Program-made: the position numbers and the translations under genes
Assembly (NCBI RefSeq): GCF_003334335.1
Contig: NZ_QOWQ01000004.1
From: Escherichia coli
Lineage (GTDB): Bacteria > Pseudomonadota > Gammaproteobacteria > Enterobacterales > Enterobacteriaceae
Length of the DNA: 64,000 nucleotides
Strand: one strand, 5' to 3'
Part shown: positions 12,995 to 13,434 of the stretch, piece after piece
Position numbering within the stretch: the stretch's first letter is position 1
Layout of the letters: the number at the start of each line of letters is the position of its first letter
The notes under the pieces: model-generated
What the model was told of the DNA's origin: nothing
Databases searched by the model: none
The model's input: only the letters and a program-made list of their open reading frames with translations

Positions 12995-13434
12995 TATCAG
13001 TCCTTGAAGTTGATGAATTTTTTTTAATTTAATTTATGAGTGAATGTGAGGACTATCAAAAATCGCTCATTAATTTTAAGAAGTACAATATAAATAGGTA
13101 GTTAACCTGTGTTGATTGCTGTTAATAATTTACAAGGTCTAATAAGGAGATATTTATGAATCGTTAAAGTGTATAGGAATTTAATTCAAAAATAGAGTGG
13201 TCTTAAGTTTAATGCCTCAATGTGTATCACAATCTCCACATTCTGTGTAGGGGGAGTCTGAAGATTGAGTAGATATTCTTATTCAGAATGTATCAGCAGA
13301 TGATTCTACGATTTTTAAGCCACGAAGAGTTCAGAGAGTGTAACGGCATGTCTGCAAGAACCAGCATCTTTTGACTATCTGGCAACCGGCAGTGTGTTTT
13401 CTCACGCATCACAAAAGCAGCAGGCATAAAAAAA

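Follow-up and report, generated by a model that had tools for sequence, protein, structure and literature searches.

H-NS silences AT-rich, horizontally acquired promoters, which is established for the locus of enterocyte effacement (LEE) and many O-islands. O-island 1 (OI-1) of Escherichia coli O157:H7 EDL933 comprises the genes z0020-z0025 (PMC10877973). Here, we analyzed the interval between espX1 (Z0025/ECs0025) and rpsT in a 64-kb stretch of E. coli DNA (contig NZ_QOWQ01000004.1; hereafter the window, whose coordinates are used throughout), the segment under study being 12995-13430. This segment is the non-coding right end of OI-1 and as such represents already known biology. Our best explanation, which we consider probable, is that it combines a silent espX1 control region, likely of the H-NS type, with a fast-diverging spacer, insulated by the rpsT terminator. 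Since OI-1, espX1 and the IS1A locus of K-12 have all been described before, the segment itself carries little biological weight, and its behaviour is shared by many silent, AT-rich regions that control acquired genes.

The right end of O-island 1

Over 20.5 kb, identity between the window and E. coli W5-6 amounts to 99.92%, and the segment itself is 100% identical in strains W5-6 and N61. Four chaperone-usher fimbrial genes and espX1 are located between nhaA-nhaR on one side and rpsT-yaaY-ribF-ileS on the other. The gene downstream of the segment (11573-12994, minus strand) has 473 codons and is named espX1, a pentapeptide-repeat putative type III secretion system effector, in the RefSeq annotation of W5-6; it gave weak Qnr-type pentapeptide matches. 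In line with an assignment to OI-1, the segment lies in the nhaR-rpsT gap beside the fimbrial operon and espX1, and shares 93.2% identity with O157:H7 over 482 of 484 nt. Thus, it corresponds to the espX1-rpsT interval of EDL933, at the same chromosomal site and with the same gene content. The alleles differ in that O157:H7, as well as K-12, lacks 14 bp (13354-13367) and that espX1 of the window carries a 1-nt frameshift.

An earlier sequence-only reading had described 12995-13430 as AT-rich, non-coding DNA between the start of the pentapeptide-repeat gene and the rpsT terminator. Our analysis confirms these coordinates as well as the description: the espX1 start codon occupies 12994-12992 and rpsT 13479-13742, both on the minus strand, and the terminator hairpin is located at 13435-13448. 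The segment, bounded by the espX1 ATG and the stem of the rpsT terminator, has a G+C content of 34% (0.342 compared to 0.51 for the whole window), a value as low as this is reached in just 4.2% of 436-bp intervals across the 64 kb, and no open reading frame (ORF) of at least 60 aa is found inside it. A listed plus-strand ORF of 118 aa (13371-13727) is antisense to rpsT, as had been stated. Read along the minus strand, rpsT (13742-13479) is followed by the hairpin CCCGCGCAAGCGGG and seven T (13448-13428), by 431 nt without a credible ORF, and then by the espX1 ATG. The composition of the segment is two-part: its left portion (12995-13216) has a G+C content of 0.266 and resembles espX1 (0.314), and the remainder (13217-13425) has an intermediate value of 0.431.

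Conservation of the segment was analyzed by megablast searches of 5426 complete E. coli genomes. At least 80% of it is present in 3642 of these genomes, in all cases as a single chromosomal copy, and its left part (12995-13216) is confined to E. coli chromosomes. In the plasmid collection, the few matches turned out to be mislabelled E. coli chromosomes, and the phage collection gave none. Likewise, no paralogous copy of the segment was detected upstream of other espX genes. A search for EspX1 with one genome per species returned just two irrelevant distant matches, because E. coli is represented there by K-12, which has no espX1.

OI-1 is found, whole or truncated, in ~4300 of the 5426 genomes. 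Since the nhaR-rpsT gap (window 6535-13426) has at least three alternative contents across them, genomes in which the site is truly empty are the proper reference for island boundaries here. Such an empty site is present in 557 genomes, in which nhaR and rpsT are separated by 95 bp and the rpsT terminator serves both genes; these genomes match the window only from 13426 on. Where genomes lack an empty site, the match begins at query base 122, equivalent to window 13426, at which ATAAAAAAACCCGC starts. Another ~565 genomes carry a GH31 glycosidase and MFS transporter cassette instead of the island and have GCAGGCAT in common with the window, with homology starting at 13420. Strain HH45 stands alone in that its gap contains ~490 bp of filler made up almost exclusively of A and T, possibly an artefact of assembly; here, homology to the window sets in at 13413. 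Pairwise diversity, computed among five full-length alleles, amounts to 5.3% in espX1, 3.2% in the AT-rich left half of the segment and 5.4% in its right half, and drops to 0.13% in the terminator and rpsT and 0.67% in the rpsT-ribF interval, a step of ~40-fold at the island/core junction. Based on the homology starts in the three other states together with this drop, the whole segment is island DNA, and we place the junction at 13413-13426, directly against the rpsT terminator. The sequence-only reading had also assigned the segment to an island and its right-hand boundary to the segment; both proposals hold, with the boundary at the extreme right end.

To the right of the island, core sequence begins with the rpsT terminator itself (13426-13458, acting on both strands), which consists of A7, the hairpin CCCGCTTGCGCGGG at 13435-13448 and T5. 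With its 5-bp GC-rich stem, 4-nt loop and A7 and T5 flanks, it resembles bidirectional intrinsic terminators between convergent or tandem genes. Unlike these, it doubles here as the mark of the island/core junction.

A comparison with the empty-site strain Z1323CEC0015 showed that nhaR is only 92.9% identical between this strain and the window, in contrast to 99.1% on the rpsT-ribF-ileS side. Whether the island is present is therefore tied to a deep haplotype split that is confined to the left flank. Upstream of nhaA, Z1323CEC0015 carries sulfatase and hypothetical genes in place of mokC/hokC.

Island remnants in K-12 and a possible nhaR relic

Pairwise alignment to K-12 had been suggested as a means to locate the breakpoint, with a full alignment of the segment to K-12 core sequence as an argument for a boundary further left. 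We found that the alignment of K-12 MG1655 is restricted to 13215-13478 and has 89.8% identity with the 14-bp gap included. The segment is thus not fully aligned, and taken at face value the test would put the boundary ~210 bp too far left. It would also turn the right half (13217-13430) into core chromosome rather than island, which we regard as very improbable. In K-12 this DNA adjoins the insertion sequence IS1A, whose end lies immediately left of the alignment, and beyond IS1A, 138 bp of the first fimbrial gene remain as a stub; no 9-bp target duplication flanks IS1A. Moreover, nothing of 13217-13412 is present in the 557 genomes with an empty site or in the ~565 that carry the GH31/MFS cassette, and the right half shows the 5.4% diversity given above, compared to 0.13% in the adjoining core. 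An assignment to the core is thereby refuted for 13217-13412, and at most the final ~13-30 bp could be ancestral.

The missing target duplication and the island remnants on either side of IS1A therefore identify K-12, as judged from the sequence, as an IS1-associated deletion of OI-1 (~6.4 kb) and not as an empty site. K-12 retains window ~13213-13425 (250 bp in K-12 between IS1A and rpsT). Because it carries this remnant, a full alignment to K-12 is unsound as a refutation of the island, and K-12 is not a valid empty-site reference here: its apparent core DNA downstream of rpsT is what is left of the island.

K-12 is not the only genome with a truncated OI-1. In EC0026B, an IS1, which like IS1A of K-12 lacks a target duplication, is joined at window 13057, and in H1827/12 an IS1 lies inside espX1. 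These three genomes resemble known IS1-mediated adjacent deletions, each with an IS1 and different island remnants on its two sides. In contrast, the window has no IS1 and shows the intact state from which they derive. In AR_0069 the deletion is free of insertion sequences, occurred between imperfect short repeats and ends at 13216-13224. This end and the IS1A junction of K-12 (13212/13213) are independent and ~10 bp apart, and both fall exactly at the jump in G+C content from 27% to 43%. Their clustering may be a coincidence, or the island may be a mosaic with a seam at this position.

For the right-most bases, a variant of the island assignment has to be considered. The last ~30 bp (13395-13425) could represent the displaced original 3′ end of nhaR together with the old nhaR-rpsT spacer, if the island entered the last nhaR codons and brought a replacement 3′ end. 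Some elements target the 3′ ends of genes in that manner. This would be compatible with our overall explanation and would merely move the junction to ~13394. It is suggested by a possible decayed copy of the nhaR end at 13395-13418 (plus strand), in which 20 of 24 positions agree with the last 23 nt of nhaR and the base after its stop codon from the GH31/MFS lineage (strain AVS0467). The orientation is identical, and the location, just before the common GCAGGCAT, is the one expected. The local alignment score of 16 compares to 9.5 ± 1.2 for shuffled sequences, and none of 500 shuffles reached 16. In addition, the last six nhaR codons of OI-1 strains and of the GH31/MFS lineage encode near-identical residues (SPAAR and SPASR) with every codon different, and homology to the other gap states reaches 13413-13420. 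However, the idea arose post hoc, the match has a BLAST E-value of 0.7 and is weak in tblastn, and an unbiased nhmmer scan of the window finds no match. No integrase is annotated in the island in W5-6, which sets OI-1 apart from integrase-type islands, and no direct repeat of at least 9 nt connects the two island junction regions. A displaced nhaR end also predicts an ancestral arrangement of 'stop-CAGCAGGCAT-terminator', and no genome was found to have such a short-spacer site when a synthetic junction was used as query. Overall, the match is suggestive only, and we consider an nhaR relic possible but doubtful.

Transcriptional silence of espX1

Since espX1 follows rpsT on the minus strand, its transcription must either begin at a promoter within the interval or result from read-through at the rpsT terminator. 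To compare the locus with published data, EDL933 coordinates were mapped via the start sites of rpsT and ribF, by which the espX1 ATG at 24751 corresponds to window 12994. Cappable-seq under eight conditions detected rpsT start sites at 25500, 25509, 25524 and 25613 in EDL933, and no minus-strand start site at 24751-25220 (PMC10469882 Table S4). In strand-specific RNA-seq of EDL933 under eleven conditions, Z0025 shows 0-1 reads per kilobase per million mapped reads (RPKM), compared to 92-4173 for Z0027 (rpsT), and all of Z0020-Z0025 are near zero (PMC4048457). The absence of a start site and an RPKM of 0-1 next to an abundant rpsT transcript therefore speak against read-through from rpsT and indicate that espX1 is silent, its promoter being off in culture. 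ECs0025 is nevertheless induced several-fold on lettuce and slightly by sulfamethoxazole-trimethoprim (SMX-TM), so that a conditional espX1 promoter must exist.

In the explanation that we favor, the left 222 bp (12995-13216, minus strand) would serve as the leader and control region of espX1. A Shine-Dalgarno-like AAGGA (13001-13005, minus strand), which would provide the ribosome-binding site, is found 6 nt upstream of the espX1 ATG and is invariant in all full-length alleles. The promoter would lie within this left part and be kept off under laboratory conditions. A candidate sigma-70 promoter, TTGATA-17-TAAATT (13031-13059, minus strand), matches the consensus at 9 of 12 positions, has hexamers that are invariant among the aligned alleles and would give an espX1 leader of ~30 nt; a second predicted promoter, TCAACA-17-TATATT, is located at 13087-13115 on the minus strand. 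Silencing would most likely be of the H-NS type acting on AT-rich acquired DNA. As in H-NS-silenced promoters, a region of 27% G+C lies upstream of an acquired effector gene, and the gene as well as the whole island is silent in vitro according to the published EDL933 data; the likeness is one of behaviour. The right ~210 bp (13217-13425) appear to be an unconstrained, quickly diverging spacer, for which no function was detected. Its most variable part harbors the 14-bp indel, and the O157:H7 and K-12 alleles that lack it come from what we take to be different phylogroups. At the far end, the strong bidirectional rpsT terminator keeps the very abundant rpsT transcript from entering espX1.

Several points weigh against this explanation. 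The promoter of the pentapeptide-repeat gene that the sequence-only reading had proposed within the segment stays a prediction, even though such a promoter, if present, has to lie in this interval because the rpsT transcript ends at the terminator: no espX1 start site is mapped in EDL933, and the segment contains 5 consensus promoter matches compared to 4.8 ± 2.2 in shuffled sequences, i.e., a number at chance level. The transcription data stem from O157:H7 EDL933 rather than from the strain of the window, and the two alleles are 93% identical. A scan with the 10-bp H-NS motif gave only two matches in the segment, each with two mismatches, and is uninformative. The left half has 14 variable columns compared to 35 in the right half, 14 of which belong to a single indel, and this lower diversity is not significant evidence of constraint. 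A literature search on espX1 and H-NS found no data on H-NS occupancy (ChIP) or on derepression in an hns mutant.

The Cappable-seq data set also contains a plus-strand start site at EDL933 position 24750 (window 12993, plus strand, by homology), which was detected in exponential M9 and exponential acid cultures only, i.e., in two of the eight conditions (PMC10469882 Table S4). From there, transcription would enter the segment in antisense orientation to the espX1 leader. Its upstream region contains a weak but plausible −35/−10 pair, AAGACA-17-TACCAT, which is conserved in the window, and the flanks match O157 except for two spacer single-nucleotide polymorphisms. A plus-strand non-coding RNA of ~460 nt could thus extend from 12993 to the bidirectional terminator, which is functional on this strand at 13435-13454, and control espX1 by antisense pairing or by transcriptional interference or promoter occlusion. 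However, the start site is weak and condition-limited, and the putative RNA folds no better than shuffled sequences (z = −0.58) and belongs to no Rfam family. AT-rich silenced DNA is known to give rise to spurious start sites. We therefore treat 12993 as spurious initiation of this kind and an antisense regulator as improbable, and retain the silent control region as the preferred reading of the left part.

Two more plus-strand start sites are listed for the island in EDL933 (PMC10469882 Table S4). One, at 23176 (window ~11419), falls between espX1 and the fimbrial subunit gene and carries the label orphan, and the other, at 23766 (window ~12009), is located inside espX1 in antisense orientation. 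Both fit pervasive initiation in an AT-rich island.

RNA families, small ORFs and neighboring genes

No structured non-coding RNA is apparent in the segment. Neither the region nor four other alleles yielded an Rfam match at threshold, sub-threshold matches to rimP-leader and Leu-leader being caused by the terminator hairpin, and folding is at the level of shuffled sequences on both strands, with a z-score of −0.93 on the minus strand in addition to the plus-strand value given above.

The most conspicuous sub-threshold match is to the riboswitch family SAM_V (RF01826; 33.5 bits, E = 0.0094 in 4 kb). On the plus strand (13087-13169), it runs into a strong Shine-Dalgarno sequence, TAAGGAG, such that a SAM-V-like riboswitch or its relic at 13087-13152 might control the AAGGAG and following ATG at 13145-13159. 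But the match does not attain the gathering score of 41, it is followed by an ORF of just three codons (MNR*; ATG AAT CGT TAA; MNG* in other alleles), and it is lost from the alleles of O157 and H1827/12, where it does not reach E < 1. The SAM-V family is known only from marine bacteria. AT-rich sequence inflates the scores of AT-rich models. A riboswitch is thus essentially refuted, its likelihood being negligible, and we regard the match as a chance hit in AT-rich DNA.

ORFs of 21-54 aa are present on both strands, and one of them might in principle be an unannotated small protein gene. They lack ribosome-binding sites, and indels of 14 bp and 1-2 bp as well as non-synonymous differences break or alter them between alleles. 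The 54-aa ORF on the minus strand, for example, starts with a GTG inside the terminator and is interrupted by the 14-bp indel in other alleles. Four small ORFs that were compared with NCBIfam matched no family. A small gene is thus hardly credible.

The frameshift in espX1 of the window results from a run of six T (12459-12464), which comprises seven T in intact alleles. The two NCTC86 assemblies disagree at this very run, LT601384 being frameshifted and CP019778 intact. An assembly error in the homopolymer may therefore account for the frameshift, in which case espX1 would not be a real pseudogene. Among the fimbrial genes, the first one (window 6570-7529, minus strand) contains an internal stop in W5-6 and is annotated there as a pseudogene; relative to W5-6, the window has an extra 1-nt deletion at 7234.
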